Assembly (NCBI GenBank): GCA_965207885.1
Contig: OZ242311.1
Location: 1,280,001 to 1,344,000 of the forward strand
DNA: 64,000 bases
Direction: 5' to 3'
Source of the DNA: Candidatus Latescibacterota bacterium
Lineage (GTDB): Bacteria; Latescibacterota; UBA2968
Shown here piece by piece: positions 12,558-27,475 of the stretch. How positions within the stretch are numbered: the stretch's first letter is position 1; each line of letters starts with the position of its first letter. Position numbers and translations under genes: made by a program. The notes below the pieces were generated by a model. It saw nothing but the letters and a program-made list of their open reading frames with translations. It did no database searches and was not told the origin of the DNA.

Positions 12558-12712
12558 CAAGACCTTCGACTGCCATCCAGCAAATCATTTACAAACTCGT
12601 CAGCAATATCAAAACTTTCCTTCCACGAGCAGTTGTATGTATAGCGTATAAATGCCACACCGCCCAGGATCATCAAAATCGCAAATAGCGCGAGCTTAAA
12701 AAGTATCTTCAT
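12557..12712 (-). CDS. Small 51-aa single-pass membrane protein MKILFKLALFAILMILGGVAFIRYTYNCSWKESFDIADEFVNDLLDGSRRS
   Basis: Below ORF-track cutoff. GAGGTG RBS, ATGA overlap with the upstream gene stop and TGATG overlap with the aroE start. Confidence 0.75.
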   Translation of the reverse strand: MKILFKLALFAILMILGGVAFIRYTYNCSWKESFDIADEFVNDLLDGSRRS

Positions 12713-13368
12713 ATTTTCACCTCTTTTGGTTGAACAACAGTAGATAAACAGGCAAATAACCCGGCGAAATCACGACACATATCACCCGTATTTGACACCC
12801 GGGTTTCGCCCTCGGCTACCAATCCCGCCAGAGTAAAGGTCAATCCCGTGAGGGCATCGCCGCCAGCATCGACCTCTATACCCTCAAGGCGCACAGGTCC
12901 CTGCACCACCAGACCATCGGGCATTTCGCCTGCCTTAGCCCCCATTTGACGCAAATTTTGAATCGTCAGTGATAGGCGGTCAACCTCTCCCTGGCGCAAA
13001 CCCTCTCCATCTCGAATAACCGTTTCGCCCGCGGCTTGCGTGCCCATCACAGCGAGAAAAGGCACTTCACGAATAAATAGATCGGTTTGCTCGCCCCCTA
13101 TACGCGTGCGCCGCAATTCAGACCCCTGGACTTTAATCGTACGCGTCACCTTAGACTTTGATCGCGTCACCTGAATGTCCAATTGTGCATTCAACCGCCG
13201 CAACAAATCCAATGCGCGGCGGGTCTTCCAATCGTCGCCCACGCAGTGAAGGGTTAAATCCGACTGCGATAACATCGCCGCAGCGCCGAGCAAATAAAGC
13301 GTGGTCTCAGGATCCCCTGGAACATCGCACTCACCAATAAGCCCACGCGCTTCCTTTACCTCATACAT
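12709..13368 (-). CDS. Half-size (219 aa) EPSP synthase-like protein, single lobe, catalytic residues degenerate
   Basis: GECDVPGD, GETVIRDGEGLRQGEVDRL, LRQMGA..E.PDGLVVQG and AGLVAEGET match the AroA C-terminal lobe. Confidence 0.8.
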   Translation of the reverse strand: MYEVKEARGLIGECDVPGDPETTLYLLGAAAMLSQSDLTLHCVGDDWKTRRALDLLRRLNAQLDIQVTRSKSKVTRTIKVQGSELRRTRIGGEQTDLFIREVPFLAVMGTQAAGETVIRDGEGLRQGEVDRLSLTIQNLRQMGAKAGEMPDGLVVQGPVRLEGIEVDAGGDALTGLTFTLAGLVAEGETRVSNTGDMCRDFAGLFACLSTVVQPKEVKI

Positions 13369-13378
13369 ACTTACCCCT

Positions 13379-14488
13379 CTAACGCAACCGCACTTGATAA
13401 CCCGCATCTCGCAAAATATCGACAGACCGATCGGCTTCCTCCTGCTGCCCAAACCCCATCCGAATCGTCCCCCCTTCGCCTTCGCGCACCTTCAGGACTT
13501 CAATATCTTCAATATTAATTCCTTCGGCAGATAAACGCGAGGCAACATCGGCAATCACACCGGGTTTGTCTTCCACCACCAGCAAAATTTCGTGAAGCGG
13601 ATGCAAAAACCCCTTGGAATCTCTGGGAATCTCTCCGCGAATGCGATTCGCATAGTCAAAATCTTCTGATAGTGCCTCTCGATCCACCTTCTCTCGTATC
13701 GCCACAAGCGCGTCGAGATACGCATTGATCATCTCTCGAATAGGACCGGCATTGGTCTGACAAATATCTCGCCACATCGCAAACGGACTGGAGGCAATGC
13801 GCGTCAAGTCGCGGAACCCACCCGCCGCCATTTGCAGGGGAAGGCCATCGGCCTCATTGAGCCTGCCCACCAATCCCACGAGCGTGGTAGCCATCATCTG
13901 CGGCAAATGGCTCACCGTCGCCGCGACCCGATCATGCGTCTCTGCCTCCATGCGCATAGAACGCGCACCAATGCATTGCACCAGTGCTGCAAGCGCATCC
14001 ACAGTTTCGTCGGAAACACCGCTTGCGGGCGTAAGCACATAAAGCGCGTTTTCAAACAAAAAGGGATCGGCAGCACCCACACCGCTCTTTTCCGACCCCG
14101 CCATGGGATGCCCGCCCACAAAATGCACATCTTCACGCGCAACCTGTTCTGCACATGCGACAATCGCGCCCTTCGTACTGCCCACATCTGTAATAATACA
14201 ACCCGGCGAGGCCGCTTTCACGACCGAGGGTAATTGCTCCAGAATACGCACAATGGGCGAACACAAAAATACCAGATCTGACCGCTTTACGCCATTGTCC
14301 ATCGCGTCGTATCCATAACCACTGTCAATCACATCGAGCGCACGGGCCTCTCGCAGGGTCTCCGCGCGGCTAATACCAATAATCTCGCGCCCAATACCCA
14401 GTCGCTTAAACGCCAGCCCCAGCGACCCGCCAATCAACCCCACACCCACAATGGCAATCGCGGCATCTGTAAACGGAGGATCGTTCAT
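13379..14488 (-). CDS. tyrA: Prephenate/arogenate dehydrogenase with C-terminal ACT domain
   Basis: GVGLIGGS, DVGSTK, GGHPMAGSE, HD..ATVSHLPQ, GFRDLTRIASS and ACT motif DKPGVIA. Confidence 0.93.
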   Translation of the reverse strand: MNDPPFTDAAIAIVGVGLIGGSLGLAFKRLGIGREIIGISRAETLREARALDVIDSGYGYDAMDNGVKRSDLVFLCSPIVRILEQLPSVVKAASPGCIITDVGSTKGAIVACAEQVAREDVHFVGGHPMAGSEKSGVGAADPFLFENALYVLTPASGVSDETVDALAALVQCIGARSMRMEAETHDRVAATVSHLPQMMATTLVGLVGRLNEADGLPLQMAAGGFRDLTRIASSPFAMWRDICQTNAGPIREMINAYLDALVAIREKVDREALSEDFDYANRIRGEIPRDSKGFLHPLHEILLVVEDKPGVIADVASRLSAEGINIEDIEVLKVREGEGGTIRMGFGQQEEADRSVDILRDAGYQVRLR

Positions 14489-17860: not shown

Positions 17861-18838
17861 TTAAATATCCCCAACGACTTGGTCGTAAAATGCCAGATAC
17901 CGATCGCAGTCATCACCATCGAGCAATGCCATTGCCTCGCGGGGATGCTGGTTGTGCTGACCCGTGATATTATAGGGCACCAGAGGTCCCCACATCATTT
18001 CGCGGCGCAACTTGACAAAATGCTCTTCCAGCAACTTATAGACGGGACGGATCTTAAACTTGGGATTCCGCAAAAAACCGAGCAACAATTCCATGGGACA
18101 ATTGCCCGCACCGCGACCCAATCCATCCACAGTAGCATCGACCCGATTGGCCCCCAAAATAATGGCCTCAATAGTATTGGCAAATGCCAGTTGCTGGTTA
18201 TTGTGCGCGTGAATACCCACCTCTTTACCCGAACCCTTGGTCGCCTCCATGTATTTTCGCACCAGCATATCGACCTGCTCGCGATACAGCGCACCGAAAC
18301 TATCCACCACGCAAATCGTGCCCACAGGGGTTTCCATCAGCACCTCTAACGCCTGATCAATCTCGACATCTTGCACCTTCGAAATCGCCATAATATTACA
18401 ACTCGTTTCATACCCCTTCTCGTGGGCATCGAGCAACATTTCGACAGTCTCGGGAATCTGCTCGACATAACACGCCACGCGCACCATATCGACCACGCTC
18501 TCGCTGGATGGCAGAATATCTTCGGCCCAATCGCTCTTGCCCGCATCCGCCATAATTGCGAGTTTCATCCCCGTCGCTTCGGGATCGTGATCCCCGGTAA
18601 TTTTGCGAATATCCTCTTCATCGCTGTGGCGGAACGCACCAAAATCTCTTTTGGGGAACATCTCTTTAGAGTTTCGGTAACCAATTTCCATATAATCAAC
18701 ACCCGCCGCGACACATGTTTCATACACGGCCTTCACAAAATCATCATCAAAATGATGGTCATTCATCAAACCGCCATCGCGGATCGTACAATCGAGTACC
18801 TTGAGTTCCGGACGGTAGGTAATCCAGGGTGCTTTCAT
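17861..18838 (-). CDS. DRE-TIM metallolyase (4-hydroxy-2-oxovalerate aldolase-like catalytic domain)
   Basis: [28 protein letters not shown] and GLGRGAGN. Confidence 0.85.
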
Positions 18839-21592: not shown

Positions 21593-22657
21593 CTAAAGCC
21601 AAGACCGCGGATCGGGAACGGACACCCATCCATTTTCGCGTACTGACTGCAACCCCGCAATACCGGGCAGTGTCATATCCAGCGCCTGCATCAAATCTAC
21701 CGGCGGTGGCGATCCATTCGCAACCGCCCGCACAAAATCCAGAACAATGAGCATACTCGTTTTGCCGTGCCCTGCACCGAGCGCGCTCGAAAACTGGGGC
21801 AACTCGGGATGGTGGCATTCTTCGCGCGTCACCTGCTCCTTATTCCCCACCGAATAATAACACACCGTTCGGGCTTCGCGAAATCGCCCCGTCTCTAAAG
21901 AACCCTCATCGCCATAAAAACTCAAGAAATGGCTCATCCCATGCACATTCTGAAACGAATTGGTCAACCTGAACACCGCACCTTCTTCGGTTCGAAACAA
22001 AGCCGTCTGTACCCAATCTGCTTCATACCCTTCTAAAAACTCATCTCTTCCTGAAGCCGAAACAGCCATGACCTCAACCAGACGATCGCCCGTCATATTC
22101 AAATACGGCGACGTCCCATGTGTCGGATAAAGAAGGGGTTGTAAACTATTCCGCCAGGTCGGCCGCCTATCGGGATGTCGCCTCAACGCTTTTAGACCGT
22201 GAATATACTCGGCTTCGGCATAGTAAATACGCCCCAGCTTCCGCGCTTCATAAAGCGACCTGGCGCGCACCACACTGGGTTCATAGACCCAATTCTCAGC
22301 CATCATATAAATGCGGTCACTTTTTGAAATAACCTCGACCAGCACCCTTGCCTCATCCATAGTCAGCGCAGCGGGCACGGCACACAAAACGTGCTTACCG
22401 GCCCGGATCGCTCGAATCACCTGTTCTGCATGAAGCGGCGCGGGAGTAAAAATAGCCACCGCATCAATCCGTTCATCAGCGACCAGATCATCAAAAGCCG
22501 CATAACAAACATCGACACCCAACTGCTCTTTTGCCTCGTCCAGTTTCTCCTGCTGGATGTCACAAACAGCGACCAACTCAGTCTCGGCATACGCATCAAA
22601 CACCCGTGCCCAGGACATGCCAAATCGCAAACCAGCAACACCTACAGAAAGAGCCAT
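21593..22657 (-). CDS. Gfo/Idh/MocA family oxidoreductase
   Basis: N-terminal Rossmann fold, TPAPLH, AGKHVLCAVP, YAEAEYIH and YPTH. Confidence 0.85.
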   Translation of the reverse strand: MALSVGVAGLRFGMSWARVFDAYAETELVAVCDIQQEKLDEAKEQLGVDVCYAAFDDLVADERIDAVAIFTPAPLHAEQVIRAIRAGKHVLCAVPAALTMDEARVLVEVISKSDRIYMMAENWVYEPSVVRARSLYEARKLGRIYYAEAEYIHGLKALRRHPDRRPTWRNSLQPLLYPTHGTSPYLNMTGDRLVEVMAVSASGRDEFLEGYEADWVQTALFRTEEGAVFRLTNSFQNVHGMSHFLSFYGDEGSLETGRFREARTVCYYSVGNKEQVTREECHHPELPQFSSALGAGHGKTSMLIVLDFVRAVANGSPPPVDLMQALDMTLPGIAGLQSVRENGWVSVPDPRSWL

Positions 22658-23716: not shown

Positions 23717-24280
23717 TCATGCATCGAGAAAATTTTGCAGCAAATTCTTGCCTTCACCCGTCAAAATCGATTCCGGATGAAACTGCACGCCATCCACCGC
23801 CATATCTCGATGGCGCAAACCCATAATCACGCCATCATCGGTCTCTGCCGTAATTTCCAGACAAACGGGCAAACTCTCTCGCTCGACCACCAGCGAATGG
23901 TAGCGCGTGGCAATAAACGGCTCAGGTAATCCCTCAAAAATAGACTTCCTCGTATGATGAATTTCCGACACCTTCCCGTGCATAATCGTCGGCGCGCCCA
24001 CAATTTTTCCACCAAATGCCTGCCCGATGGACTGATGCCCCAGACAAACCCCTAAAATCGGAATTTCCCCCGCAAAATGCTGCACCAAAGCCACGGAAAT
24101 TCCCGCTTCGTTTGGCGTACACGGCCCCGGAGAAATCACGATCTTCTCAGGTGCGATATCCGCAATCTCTTCAAGTGAGATTTGATCATTGCGATACACC
24201 ACCAGATCCGCACCCAGTTCGCCGAGATATTGAACGAGGTTATAAGTAAAAGAATCGTAGTTATCAATGACGAGAATCAC
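23717..24280 (-). CDS. trpG: Anthranilate synthase component II
   Basis: [27 protein letters not shown] and QFHPES. Confidence 0.95.
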
Positions 24281-25752
24281 AACAACACTCCTCTTTCAGC
24301 CATTTCCACCGCCCGAAACAGTGCCCGCGCTTTGTTCACGGTCTCCTGATATTCGTATTCCGGCTCTGAATCAAACACCACACCACCTCCTGCCTGCACA
24401 TACGCTTTGCCATTCTTAATCACCAGCGTGCGAATGGCAATACACGTATCCATATTGCCCGCAAAATCGATATAACCCACCGCACCGGCATAAGGCCCGC
24501 GGCGCGTAGGTTCCATCTCGTCGATAATCTCCATCGCCCGAATTTTTGGCGCGCCCGACACCGTACCAGCCGGATAACATGCAAAAAGCGCGTCCAGCGC
24601 ATCGACACCCTCGTGCAATTCCCCGCACACATTCGAAACGATATGCATCACATGAGAATAGCGTTCAATCGCCATCTGCTCGGTCACGCGCACCGTATCA
24701 AACCTGGAAACGCGCCCCACATCATTGCGCCCCAGATCCACCAGCATAATATGCTCGGCGCGTTCTTTTTCATCTGCCAACAACTCCTGTGACAGCACCT
24801 GATCCTCTGCCTCTGTTTTGCCGCGCCACCGCGTCCCCGCAATAGGTCGCACCTGCACCACCCCGTCCTCTACCCTGACGAGCAACTCGGGCGACGCGCC
24901 CACGAGTTGATGATCTTTCAAATCGACGTGAAACATATAAGGCGACGGATTCACCGTCCGCAACGCCCGATAAATATCCAGTGCATCCACCGTCACATCC
25001 ATTGCAAAGCGCTGCGAAGGCACCACCTGGAAAATATCACCTGCCACAATGTATTCCCTGCAATGCGCCACCACATCCATATACGCTTCTTTGCTCGTAT
25101 TTGAAGTCACGACACACGAACTCGTGCCCGGTTTCAGAGACACATCCACCGGTTGCGCCAGTACCTCAATAAGTGTATCGATCCGTTTGACTGCATCCTC
25201 GTAATTCGCCTCCAAATCTCCCTCTGTATGCACATTGGCCATCACATGCACTTTGTGCGTCACATTGTCAAACGCCAGCACCGAATCGTAAAAGGAAAAA
25301 AATATATCGTCAAAACCGAGATCGTCTTCAACCGTCTCGGGAATGCGCTCAATCAAACGCACGGCATCGTAACTCACATAGCCCACAGCACCGCCTGTAA
25401 ATCGAGGCAACCCCTCCACAGGTTGCGAATGGTATTTTTTTAACAACCCACGCAATACCTCAATAGGCTCCCCGTCAAATAGTCGCAGCTCACCCGTCGT
25501 CGCATGTTCAATCGAAATTTTTGTTCCGCGCGAACGAAAAACCAGAAACGGATCCACGCCTAAAAACGAATACCGCCCAATCTGCTCGCCGCCCACCACG
25601 CTTTCAAACAAAAACGCATGCGATGATCTGGCGCGAATTTTCAAATAAGCCGAAACAGGCGTCTCCGTATCCGCGAGTAGTTCTCTTGAAATGGGAACGA
25701 GACCACAGTCTTTGCTCATCTTCTTCACAGTTTTGAGATCGGGTTGAATCAC
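24277..25752 (-). CDS. trpE: Anthranilate synthase component I
   Basis: [33 protein letters not shown] and [11 protein letters not shown] start after AAGGA. Confidence 0.96.
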
Positions 25753-25765
25753 TGGAAAATCCTTA

Positions 25766-25805
25766 AAGAAAATAAAAAAGGTCGTGAGCAGTTTGCCCAC
25801 GACCT
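25766..25805 (-). terminator. Intrinsic terminator (attenuator) upstream of trpE
   Basis: RNA: AGGUCGUGGGCA-AAC-UGCUCACGACCU (12-bp stem, one G-U pair) followed by UUUUUAUUUUCUUU. Confidence 0.9.
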
Positions 25806-25832
25806 CGTACTTTTATTTTCATACCAAAACAC

Positions 25833-25934
25833 TCAACACGCAGGACAAACCACACTCTTGGACGGGCGGCAATAATAATATCGACCGTCAAATCGACGCC
25901 AAAAATACCAGAAGTAGGTCGCAAAAGCGTTCAT
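25833..25934 (-). CDS. Aromatic amino acid attenuation leader peptide MNAFATYFWYFWRRFDGRYYYCRPSKSVVCPAC
   Basis: 33 codons, 11 aromatic (4 Phe, 2 Trp, 5 Tyr). AAGGA RBS at 25949-25945 (in-frame GTG at 25937 is an alternative start). Lies between the promoter and the terminator. Confidence 0.88.
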   Translation of the reverse strand: MNAFATYFWYFWRRFDGRYYYCRPSKSVVCPAC

Positions 25935-25975
25935 CACATCAAATTCCTTAAACCAGAGTTATATCGGACGCGCCA

Positions 25976-26003
25976 AAGATAACAAATTCTAAAACAGTGT
26001 CAA
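25976..26003 (-). promoter_or_regulatory. sigma70-type promoter of the aromatic operon
   Basis: TTGACA-16 nt-TATCTT with extended -10 TG. Confidence 0.7.
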
Positions 26004-26012
26004 GAGGGAAGT

Positions 26013-26783
<771 letters not shown>

Positions 26784-26803
26784 AAAACACCTCACAATCA
26801 GAT

Positions 26804-27475
26804 TTAAACTTCCAACGACATCGCATCAACCGGCTCCATCTTGGCAGCGCGATAGGCCGGCAAAATACCGCCAACCAGCGACAAAACAGAACCAATAACA
26901 ATAGCTTTAACACCATCTTCAAGAATTTGAGCCAGAGGAAGATGATCGAAAATCACCGTGCCAAAACTCGACATATTGAGCAATGCAGTCAGCAAAAACC
27001 CAATGATCACGCCAATAACCGTGCCTGCTGTACCCATAAACGTCGATTCGAGAATAAACAGCTTAATAATAAATCCGTCCAGGGCGCCCATACATTTCAT
27101 GGTGCCAATCTCGCGGAACCGCTCGGTAACAGACATCAGCATAGCATTGGCAATACCCACCAAACACACGAGCAGTGACAACACCACCAGCCATGCATCC
27201 TTCGACCGTTGCTGCATTGCGGCGGCACTGTCGGGATCAATTTCAACGCCCTTTTGTTGCAAGATCAAATTGATCTTGGGATCGCCAGCACCCATCAAAC
27301 CATCAATAATGGAATTGCCCGCCCAAATCGACATCAAAAAAGCGATAGCAAGCACAATACCACTCACCGTAATCAAAGATCGGCCAAATCGAATCTTAAC
27401 GCTATTAAAACTGATCTCAACCGCTTTGGAAAGCGGAAGAGATATCTGGGTATTGAGTTCGTGCTGCTGTGCCAT
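26804..27475 (-). CDS. Short FtsX-like ABC permease
   Basis: ANAMLMSVTERFREIGTMKCMGA and PAYRAAKMEPVDAM. Four TM segments with a very small periplasmic loop. Confidence 0.88.
   Translation of the reverse strand: MAQQHELNTQISLPLSKAVEISFNSVKIRFGRSLITVSGIVLAIAFLMSIWAGNSIIDGLMGAGDPKINLILQQKGVEIDPDSAAAMQQRSKDAWLVVLSLLVCLVGIANAMLMSVTERFREIGTMKCMGALDGFIIKLFILESTFMGTAGTVIGVIIGFLLTALLNMSSFGTVIFDHLPLAQILEDGVKAIVIGSVLSLVGGILPAYRAAKMEPVDAMSLEV

Follow-up and report, generated by a model that had tools for sequence, protein, structure and literature searches.

A putative leader-peptide attenuator with tryptophan, tyrosine and phenylalanine codons upstream of a tyrS-containing aromatic supraoperon in Latescibacterota

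The region upstream of trpE has been analysed in a stretch of 64,000 nucleotides from a Candidatus Latescibacterota bacterium (GenBank assembly GCA_965207885.1, contig OZ242311.1, positions 1,280,001 to 1,344,000), termed the window throughout. A short leader gene rich in codons for tryptophan, tyrosine and phenylalanine is located here on the minus strand, followed by an intrinsic terminator and then by trpE, the first gene of a cluster that contains the tyrosyl-tRNA synthetase gene tyrS. We interpret the element as a classical ribosome-mediated attenuator that controls read-through from a promoter P1 into an aromatic supraoperon, acting as a multivalent sensor of aromatic amino acids; we assign this reading a probability of about 0.6. 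Judged from sequence comparison, the element is very probably a leader-peptide attenuator, and tryptophan is with equal confidence one of its inputs. Tyrosine is probably a further input, phenylalanine can be proposed only tentatively, and arginine, which would correspond to the argS gene of the cluster, is an unlikely one. An earlier sequence-only reading of this DNA had proposed that a single leader senses Phe, Trp and Tyr together as an OR gate. The joint sensing is favoured by the presence of all three codon types in 51 of 51 related leaders, by the content of the operon and by a leader composition that follows the aminoacyl-tRNA synthetase (aaRS) gene of the operon, while the possibility that part of the codon pattern is inherited counts against it.

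RESULTS

Anatomy of the leader in the window

The elements of the leader region, from 5′ to 3′ in the RNA, are as follows.

25976..26003, minus strand: promoter-like site P1, with −35 TTGACA (26003-25998), a 16-nt spacer and an extended −10 TG-n-TATCTT (25981-25976); 10/12 matches
25945..25949, minus strand: leader Shine–Dalgarno (SD) sequence AAGGA
25833..25934, minus strand: leader open reading frame (ORF) of 33 codons plus TGA, with ATG at 25934 and the stop codon TGA at 25835-25833; peptide MNAFATYFWYFWRRFDGRYYYCRPSKSVVCPAC
25914..25931, minus strand: candidate segment 1 (anti-antiterminator strand), codons 2-7, AACGCUUUUGCGACCUAC, able to pair with segment 2; weak in the window, −12.2 kcal/mol
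25899..25916, minus strand: first aromatic cluster, codons 7-12, Y-F-W-Y-F-W (UAC UUC UGG UAU UUU UGG)
25861..25889, minus strand: possible pause hairpin GACGG (25889-25885)/CCGUC (25865-25861) enclosing the Tyr codons
25872..25880, minus strand: Tyr run, codons 19-21 (UAU UAU UAU); relatives have three or four Tyr here
25839..25853, minus strand: segment 2, GUGGUUUGUCCUGCG (codons 28-32), whose end lies 4 nt 5′ of the stop codon; putative 5′ strand of the antiterminator
25778..25806, minus strand: intrinsic terminator (segments 3 and 4), 13-bp stem GAGGUCGUGGGCA-AAC-UGCUCACGACCUU with loop AAC
25769..25777, minus strand: U-tract UUUUAUUUU

The SD (25764-25760) and GTG start codon (25752) of trpE lie immediately 3′ of the U-tract. 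The promoter, ribosome-binding site and leader were placed correctly by the sequence-only reading, as was the peptide; its terminator is also present with its U-tract, with a stem of 13 bp rather than 12 bp. The leader SD is separated from the ATG by 10 nt, and (U)AAGGA is found in 13 of the 19 leaders of the genus whose pre-start stretch was compared. A GTG one codon 5′ of the ATG was considered as the start and ruled out, because relatives do not have it. Sequences resembling the −10 element (TGTTATCTT/TGTTAATCTT) likewise occur within the 40 nt 5′ of the leaders in other genera.

Eleven of the 33 codons are aromatic (2 separated Trp, 5 Tyr and 4 Phe), compared with 9.3% in the long ORFs of the genome (binomial P = 1.2e-4). 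The aromatic fraction is 0.33 in frame, and 0.09 and 0.06 in the other two frames. Arginine accounts for 4/33 codons, which taken alone is no significant enrichment (P = 0.18). The leader DNA is single-copy in the genome, and a genome-wide scan for other aromatic-rich leader-like ORFs gave none that was convincing, the six candidates inspected having no aromatic genes downstream. Near one false-positive aromatic ORF of that scan, outside the window, a small ORF MPRNPSGSCGGSTTTLHGGFDLKGHRNSWSPPNYRPSCCCLDSHLYSPPSDC (G000:C1:272185-272340, minus strand) was read by eye; it may encode a Cys-rich peptide.

Proposed mechanism and alternative folds

RNA polymerase would transcribe the 33-codon leader from P1. 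A ribosome that is not delayed would reach the stop codon and cover segment 2, whereupon the terminator (25806-25778) would form and transcription would end 16 nt before the trpE start. Where a charged tRNA is scarce the ribosome would stall at the Trp, Tyr or Phe codons of FWYFW (codons 8-12) or YYY (codons 19-21), leaving segment 2 (25853-25839) free to capture the terminator's 5′ arm with its loop while the 3′ arm is still to be made, and the polymerase would read on. The antiterminator so formed is predicted to pair GUUUGUCCUGCG (25850-25839) with CGUGGGCAAAC (25801-25791) through 11 base pairs, including two G.U pairs, with one bulged U, and its 3′ strand is thus the 5′ arm plus loop of the terminator.

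With the ribosome placed on the Tyr codons and the 3′ arm not yet made, the antiterminator is the minimum-energy fold. When the transcript is truncated before the 3′ arm and the ribosome is modelled as a mask, the probability of pairing between segments 2 and 3, P(2:3), amounts to 0.74-0.77 when codons 5-12 occupy the A site and to 0.58-0.80 for the Tyr codons, falling to 0 from codon 25 to the stop. The bracketing of the Tyr run by GACGG and CCGUC, also proposed in the sequence-only reading, is borne out by a predicted hairpin of −8 kcal/mol (z = −2.0; 9/200 shuffles fold equally well), which may serve for pausing or timing. In genus g6 (locus L117) the YY codons are likewise enclosed by a hairpin, its stem being of different sequence (CCUUCCGG/CCGGGAGG); the fold there, of −20.6 kcal/mol, contains two hairpins.

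Conservation in the genus and order

TrpE was found in 53/53 genomes of the order, and trpE-upstream DNA was taken from 31 genomes of other genera plus one extra genome of the window's genus. With two contig-end cases left out (locus L103, with just 143 nt upstream, and genome G040, with trpE at the contig end) the comparison comprises 51 evaluable leaders of families f1 and f2 from 10 genera, that is 21 genomes of the window's genus and 30 of nine other genera. Distant loci from metagenome-assembled genomes (identity ≤60%) were not used in it.

A search with the leader DNA detects it in 20/20 other genomes of the genus and in 0/20 genomes of other genera. The leader ORF is kept in 21/21 genomes of the genus, where all indels in the core are in frame (3 or 6 nt), and diverged leaders of the same build stand 5′ of trpE in 30/30 evaluable genomes of the nine other genera; examples are LWYWRRFDGRFYYYRQPS, MDSKNLYWRGYFYRFSRFYWEMQFRAVCPSF, ..FSWRGYFYRSYRWYYREVSDCCVCPRE and ..SFFWRYFWYYRYYRQAQERCMPTL. 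Conserved Phe, Trp and Tyr codons before trpE, which the earlier reading had suggested seeking in relatives, are found in every case: all 51 leaders have at least one W, one F, two Y and three R, with an aromatic fraction of 0.15-0.39 in frame and 0.03-0.17 out of frame.

The peptide core FW-x-FWRRFDGRYYY(Y) is kept within the genus. Codons 8-22 contain eight variable columns, of which four are synonymous third positions (F8, F15, D16 and G17), while codons 23-34 and 2-7 vary at all three positions. Variation at F8 is synonymous only, and W9, F11 and W12 are invariant. The twice-repeated Y-F-W triplet to which the sequence-only reading had drawn attention is present in the window and is not conserved: of the 21 genomes, 11 encode Tyr at codon 7, 8 encode His and 2 encode Cys, and only 10 have the full YFWYFW. 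Across the order W12 with the following Arg (UGG CG) is nearly invariant, TGGCG being found at ≥90% of the 51 sequences.

Two kinds of insertion occur in the genus. Five genomes (L013-L017) carry about 500 nt with two small ORFs (~80 aa each) between the promoter region and the leader, and nine other members have 40-140 nt between the terminator and trpE. Complete genomes exist for several members.

Contigs assembled from RNA sequencing runs (Logan) come from relatives 85-95% alike, and show neither transcript ends nor levels. One metatranscriptome contig extends from the leader to just 5′ of the terminator, another contains the 5′ part of trpE, and a third contains leader, terminator and trpE.

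Comparative RNA architecture

RNAalifold applied to the alignment of 51 leaders recovers the terminator, with compensatory changes in 4/11 pairs. The core of segment 2, UG(C/U)CC, is invariant in position in 51/51 sequences, and as UG(C/U)CC(AC) it is complementary to GUGGGCA of the terminator arm. Four of the central five pairs of the 2:3 helix are standard in 51/51 sequences and the fifth in 49/51, and one flanking pair has changed on both sides. Paired cells amount to 75% in register, compared with 40-51% when the strands are slid, and 0/500 shuffles reach this paired share. The flanks extend the helix in a lineage-specific manner: GUUU with loop AAAC in the window's genus, GUAU with AUAC in g7 and ACG with CGU in g6.

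In 52/54 leaders of families f1 to f3 the first nucleotide of the segment-2 core lies 5-12 nt 5′ of the stop codon, and in the remaining two it lies 10 nt 3′ of it. Given this placement a terminating ribosome would mask segment 2. In the two exceptions, both from g9, the 'VCP' sequence is untranslated; the conserved 'VCP/CMP' tail of the peptide is on this comparison read as an RNA feature.

Segment 1 lies just 5′ of the first aromatic cluster in g8, g10 and the window's genus, and its sequence is lineage-specific. Its duplex with segment 2 is −12 to −18 kcal/mol in the window's genus, where it is perfect in L019 (GCAAACCAC:GUGGUUUGC). In g6 and g11 segment 1 is GGCGUGGGUA (W-R-G-Y codons), which resembles the terminator arm and forms a duplex of about −20 kcal/mol with UGCCCACGC, giving a textbook four-segment design.

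Between families the two strands have changed jointly. The f1-f3 leaders pair UG(C/U)CC(AC) with GUGGGCA. Most leaders of the sister family f4 pair (G/A)UGCGUCC with GGACGCA(U/C)C, the terminator arm being CCGCGGACGCAUC and the distal leader strand GAUGCGUCC or GGUGCGUCC; in part of g26 the arm is GGGCGCACC, and the pairing includes one G.U. The covariation that the sequence-only reading had proposed to look for is present in the terminator, in one flanking 2:3 pair and in these exchanges between families.

The downstream supraoperon

The genes that follow the leader, all on the minus strand unless only a range is given, include the following.

24277..25764, minus strand: trpE (anthranilate synthase I) with SD AAGGA at 25764-25760 and GTG at 25752; Chorismate_bind 319 bits, Anth_synt_I_N 129 bits
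7053..24280, minus strand: remaining co-directional aromatic cluster
15838-15557, minus strand: chorismate mutase, TIGR01807, 86 bits (cut-off 70)
12709-13452, minus strand: aroA copy, C-terminal half of EPSP synthase only (Pfam positions 225-405 of 417; NCBIfam aroA 94 bits, cut-off 287)
7043-5499: purF-like gene following aroB
Within the cluster: tyrS, TIGR00234, 421 bits (cut-off 114); DAHP synthase (aroFGH), TIGR00034, 236 bits (cut-off 173); tyrA with ACT domain, Pfam PDH_N and PDH_C; argS, TIGR00456, 481 bits (cut-off 262)

The order is trpE, trpG, trpD, a GFO/IDH/MocA oxidoreductase gene, trpC, trpF, tyrS, an HMGL-like gene, trpB, trpA and chorismate mutase, continuing with DAHP synthase, tyrA, the truncated aroA, aroE, a menG/ubiE-like methyltransferase gene, an unknown ORF, argS, aroK and aroB. 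Neighbouring ORFs of the list either overlap or lie no more than 148 nt apart, and terminator-like sites within the cluster are not in excess (24, with 24.3 expected). The gene order, including tyrS and argS, is kept in 9/9 other genera examined. The cluster would constitute a supraoperon of roughly 20 kb under one leader. Since it contains tyrS, tyrA, chorismate mutase and DAHP synthase besides the trp genes, a sensor of several aromatic amino acids makes sense here.

Leader composition and the synthetase gene of the operon

Family f4, of the same class, has the operon trpE-G-D-C-trpS-CM-tyrA-aroA-aroE-argS-aroK-aroB-rimO (CM, chorismate mutase). Its trpS scores 360-381 bits (cut-off 177) in 3/3 scanned proteins and is found by tblastn in 8/8 loci that are long enough. 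Among the loci of f1 and f2 trpS occurs in 0/9, and there is none in the window. The leaders differ correspondingly.

f4 leaders (trpS), n = 10: W 2-4, F 0-3, Y 0-2; WW in 9/10, YY in 0/10
f1/f2 leaders (tyrS), n = 51: W 1-2, F 1-5, Y 2-6; WW in 0/51, YY or longer in 46/51

Leader composition changes with the aaRS gene of the operon: Tyr runs accompany tyrS, and WW or WWW runs accompany trpS, as in the f4 leader MTDNRTDNPRRWWWRFWSYETGQGCVHP. The acquisition of a Tyr run and of additional Phe codons by the leaders, and the disappearance of their Trp runs, go together with the entry into the operon of tyrS, DAHP synthase and the remaining Trp-branch genes. Family f3, again of the same class, has a like operon and leader, with MSSNRASFFESSRFYYYWRFYGGDCPSR where tyrS is present and MVQKGAIFFDYFRAYWWERALEEDCPLH in a single genome without a Trp or Tyr synthetase gene at the locus. 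Arg codons are enriched in the f1-f4 leaders, with a median of 3-6 per leader; across the order there are 3-10 per leader.

More distant families provided 17 loci, in which no aaRS gene was found within stretches of 2-9.6 kb, nine of them reaching trpF or beyond. A leader with terminator is present in five of these loci from four families, namely MHVSFPMDAQRWYWRRFHKETCAVT (f13, two loci), ..ISFQWWAWWRGHIGGRVCPCGG (f6), MTALRFSCSYYDWVWPPMEGGAER (f8) and a weak candidate in f12. The 12/17 loci of f5, f9, f10 and f11 gave no leader plus terminator passing the filter used, which is no proof of absence.

Two trpS-like genes are located elsewhere in the window's genome (G000:C1:4424060-4425019 and 2863653-2864642), each ~34% identical to the TrpS of the f4 operon. 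At the other end of the f4 cluster a rimO-type radical-SAM methylthiotransferase gene lies right after aroB (L153:12506-13867, TIGR01125 447 bits, cut-off 357), and L150:13017-14375 has the same Pfam domains.

DISCUSSION

Points that weigh against a multivalent attenuator

Several of the results count against the reading that we prefer. Taken alone, the 2:3 complementarity of the window is not beyond chance, since ~15% of random window 20-mers pair equally well with the G-rich terminator arm; of the pairing proposed in the sequence-only reading the 11 base pairs and the comparative support stand, and significance in the window by itself does not. In equilibrium folding of the full transcript with a masked ribosome the terminator is favoured by ~6 kcal/mol, with a probability of 0.95, at every ribosome position; the switch must therefore be kinetic. 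P(2:3) is still 0.53 in the window without a ribosome, so that the anti-antiterminator is weak there. A universal 1:2 helix of the g6 type was rejected, its 52% of paired positions being the same as in shuffles. Duplex energies of cognate and non-cognate strands differ for f4 (−17.1 versus −12.8 kcal/mol) and hardly at all for f1-f3 (−14.2 versus −14.1 kcal/mol), so that they tell the families apart in a single direction, an effect of the high GC content of the f4 arms. Phylogenetically the tyrS/trpS contrast comes down to what is essentially a single split, and it is suggestive rather than statistical proof.

The genomes of nine other genera have a near-consensus promoter (CTTGACA-N16-19-TATTAT-like) between the terminator and trpE (L101-L116 and L120; at L112:455-484 it is TTGACA-18-TATTAT, with 11/12 matches). 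Downstream of it stands a conserved motif, approximately TATCTTGATAAAATTTCGATAGTTAG, that contains the inverted repeat CTATC..GATAG, and the whole may be a second promoter with an operator. In those genera the attenuator is thus not the sole control. No such promoter is present in the window. Finally, pheA is not in the operon. This, together with the unconserved Y-F-W repeat, the equilibrium preference for the terminator and the recurrence of the W-Y-W-R-R-F core in the distant family f13, argues against the clean three-way OR gate of the sequence-only reading. On the other side, pheA overlaps its upstream gene and has no leader of its own, which, like the lack of a second convincing aromatic-rich leader in the genome scan, speaks for the reading that we prefer.

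Alternative explanations

The elements could also belong to an attenuator that responds to tryptophan only, in which the UGG codons, above all the UGG-CG of codon 12, are regulatory and those for Tyr, Phe and Arg are passengers that build hairpins or were inherited. We consider this unlikely, though the evidence for it is of several kinds. UGGCG is the best-conserved leader motif across the order, and the Tyr codons lie in the loop of a conserved hairpin whose stem consists of Arg, Gly and Pro codons. The core W-Y-W-R-R-F is already found in f13, as RWYWRRF, before an operon without an aaRS gene in the 5.7-9.6 kb fetched; this makes the core an old one, whose one Tyr and one Phe may be inherited passengers rather than sensors. 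There is also a precedent in the Phe-Tyr-Phe leader aroR upstream of the aroF DAHP-synthase operon of Corynebacterium glutamicum which is reported to respond to Phe and not to Tyr (review PMC11802643). Passenger codons would not account for the rise of Tyr codons from 0-2 to 2-6 and the disappearance of Trp runs exactly in the lineages that bear tyrS instead of trpS. Moreover Phe and Tyr codons are swapped between two g2 species (UAU UUC and UUC UAU), so that the aromatic class is kept and the nucleotides are not, and synonymous UAU/UAC and UUU/UUC changes are tolerated. An extension of the multivalent attenuator in the opposite direction, to a sensor re-tuned in evolution to operon content with four inputs (Trp, Tyr, Phe and Arg), three branches, two aaRS genes and one switch, seems doubtful to us. 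In it the Arg codons would register Arg-tRNA on behalf of argS, and the Tyr codons of the hairpin loop might have a separate weight.

Three further explanations leave aside control of read-through by stalling at scarce tRNAs. The leader might be an independent small gene or small RNA with a constitutive terminator of its own, acting in trans in the manner of rnTrpL/peTrpL rather than primarily as a cis switch. The products of trpL in Sinorhizobium meliloti are reported to work in trans, and nine other genera have the strong promoter-like site between the terminator and trpE. Of the 21 genomes of the genus, the window's and about 10 more have the trpE SD directly after the U-tract, which leaves no room for a promoter, and both the antiterminator strand and its link to the stop codon are conserved. 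A trans function would in any case be additional to a cis switch and no replacement for it, and we regard this explanation as very improbable. Still less probable is a nascent-peptide sensor of the TnaC type, in which the peptide (W12, D16 and P24) would arrest the ribosome on a free aromatic amino acid bound in the exit tunnel. TnaC has the spacing W-x3-D-x7-P, with Pro as the last codon before the stop. The W12-x3-D16-x7-P24 of the window (25863-25901, minus strand) has the same spacing, and within the family the peptide sequence of the core FWRRFDGRYYY is conserved. This spacing is broken in 14/21 members of the genus (by YYYY) and in all other genera, and the Pro lies 9 codons before the stop rather than adjacent to it. 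Arrest by an end product would have the wrong logic, turning a biosynthetic operon on at abundance. The 'VCP' tail is moreover explained by the RNA (UGCCC/GGGCA), and is untranslated in 2/3 of the g9 leaders. Least credible of all is that the motifs form an internal sigma-70 promoter rather than codons. The segment TTGGCG-16-TATTAT (25902-25875, minus strand) does have 9/12 matches, but its UUGGCG is W12-R13 and its UAUUAU is the Tyr run. The spacing is lost in f2 (27 nt in g6), transcription from such a promoter would yield an RNA with segment 2 and the terminator only, and the aromatic enrichment is specific to the reading frame; the resemblance is probably coincidental.

Relation to known systems

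The multivalent attenuator proposed here follows the Yanofsky model of trpL-trpE in Escherichia coli and Salmonella, with a short ORF containing Trp codons, four segments (1-4), an antiterminator and a terminator that have one strand in common, trpE as the first gene, and a stop codon placed for masking of segment 2 by the terminating ribosome. It differs in having no sequence or structure match to Trp_leader, in its 33 codons with just 2 separated Trp beside 5 Tyr and 4 Phe, and in preceding a cluster of 20 genes for Trp, Tyr, shikimate and aaRS functions rather than trpEDCBA. The enterobacterial leaders of ilvGMEDA (Leu/Val/Ile) and thr (Thr/Ile) are multivalent, with long codon runs. They are alike in that one leader serves several amino acids; here the pathway is aromatic, and the codons are interleaved with Arg and lie partly in a hairpin loop.

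Covariance-model searches of positions 25000-27000 gave no Rfam family reaching its gathering score, so that the attenuator has no matching Rfam family. Trp_leader (RF00513) has no match even at E up to 10, the only leader family at that level being L20_leader on the opposite strand (16.6 bits, gathering 58.7). Two other weak matches were rejected: the trpB ncRNA motif (RF04312; 24.6 bits, E = 1.4, gathering 59) aligns with the terminator half only, and rli42 with the terminator only. Bacillus trp genes use TRAP, and in Firmicutes tyrS and aromatic operons are usually controlled by T-boxes; the T-box covariance model has no match in the same region at E up to 10. In the window the sensor would be the ribosome, and both the gene order and the tyrS and argS members distinguish the cluster from the supraoperon of Bacillus subtilis. 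The latter (aro-trp-hisC-tyrA-aroE) and other supraoperons under attenuation are described in PMC1173090; the B. subtilis unit likewise has trp merged with genes of the common pathway and of Tyr synthesis, and an attenuator in front.

Mixed aromatic codons are also found in the C. glutamicum aroR discussed above, the only published mixed-aromatic leader that we found. It is reported to have no Trp codon, and trp to have a trpL of its own, whereas here three codon types precede trpE in an operon with tyrS and argS. Attenuation by leader peptides with cognate codons is described for aaRS genes, namely for pheST of E. coli (PMC11802643) and for trpS and leuS of Streptomyces (PMC1262725), and the pairing of synthetase and codon resembles that of tyrS with Tyr here and trpS with Trp in f4. 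In those cases the aaRS gene is the direct target, while here it lies in the middle of a supraoperon. A literature search that did not extend to subscription papers found no leader with Trp, Tyr and Phe codons upstream of trpE and no tyrS-bearing trp supraoperon.

Should the Tyr and Phe codons prove to be true inputs, a single RNA of 100 nt would integrate three aromatic supplies for an operon of 20 kb that comprises two aaRS genes, the entry enzyme, shikimate steps and both the Trp and the Tyr branch. The sister families, with tyrS and Tyr runs or trpS and Trp runs behind a like switch, would constitute a natural experiment on the rewiring of attenuator inputs. The comparison also provides an annotation rule for a regulatory element that is conserved class-wide and is at present unannotated.

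Additional observations on the cluster genes

The place of the truncated aroA is 700-800 nt longer in most other genera, and is short also in g7; two full-length genes of the EPSP_synthase family are located elsewhere in the window's genome. The tyrS genes of g8 and g11 (L135:4704-5828 and L141:12795-13907) encode another form of TyrS, 30-32% identical to that of the window and scoring 363-375 bits with TIGR00234, which looks like a non-orthologous replacement with the position kept. Two genes of the cluster have no obvious aromatic role: the GFO/IDH/MocA oxidoreductase gene between trpD and trpC (21593-22657, minus strand) and the HMGL-like aldolase/synthase-type gene between tyrS and trpB (17861-18838, minus strand). 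Of these the HMGL-like gene is found again in g6 and g9, where it is 84-90% identical.

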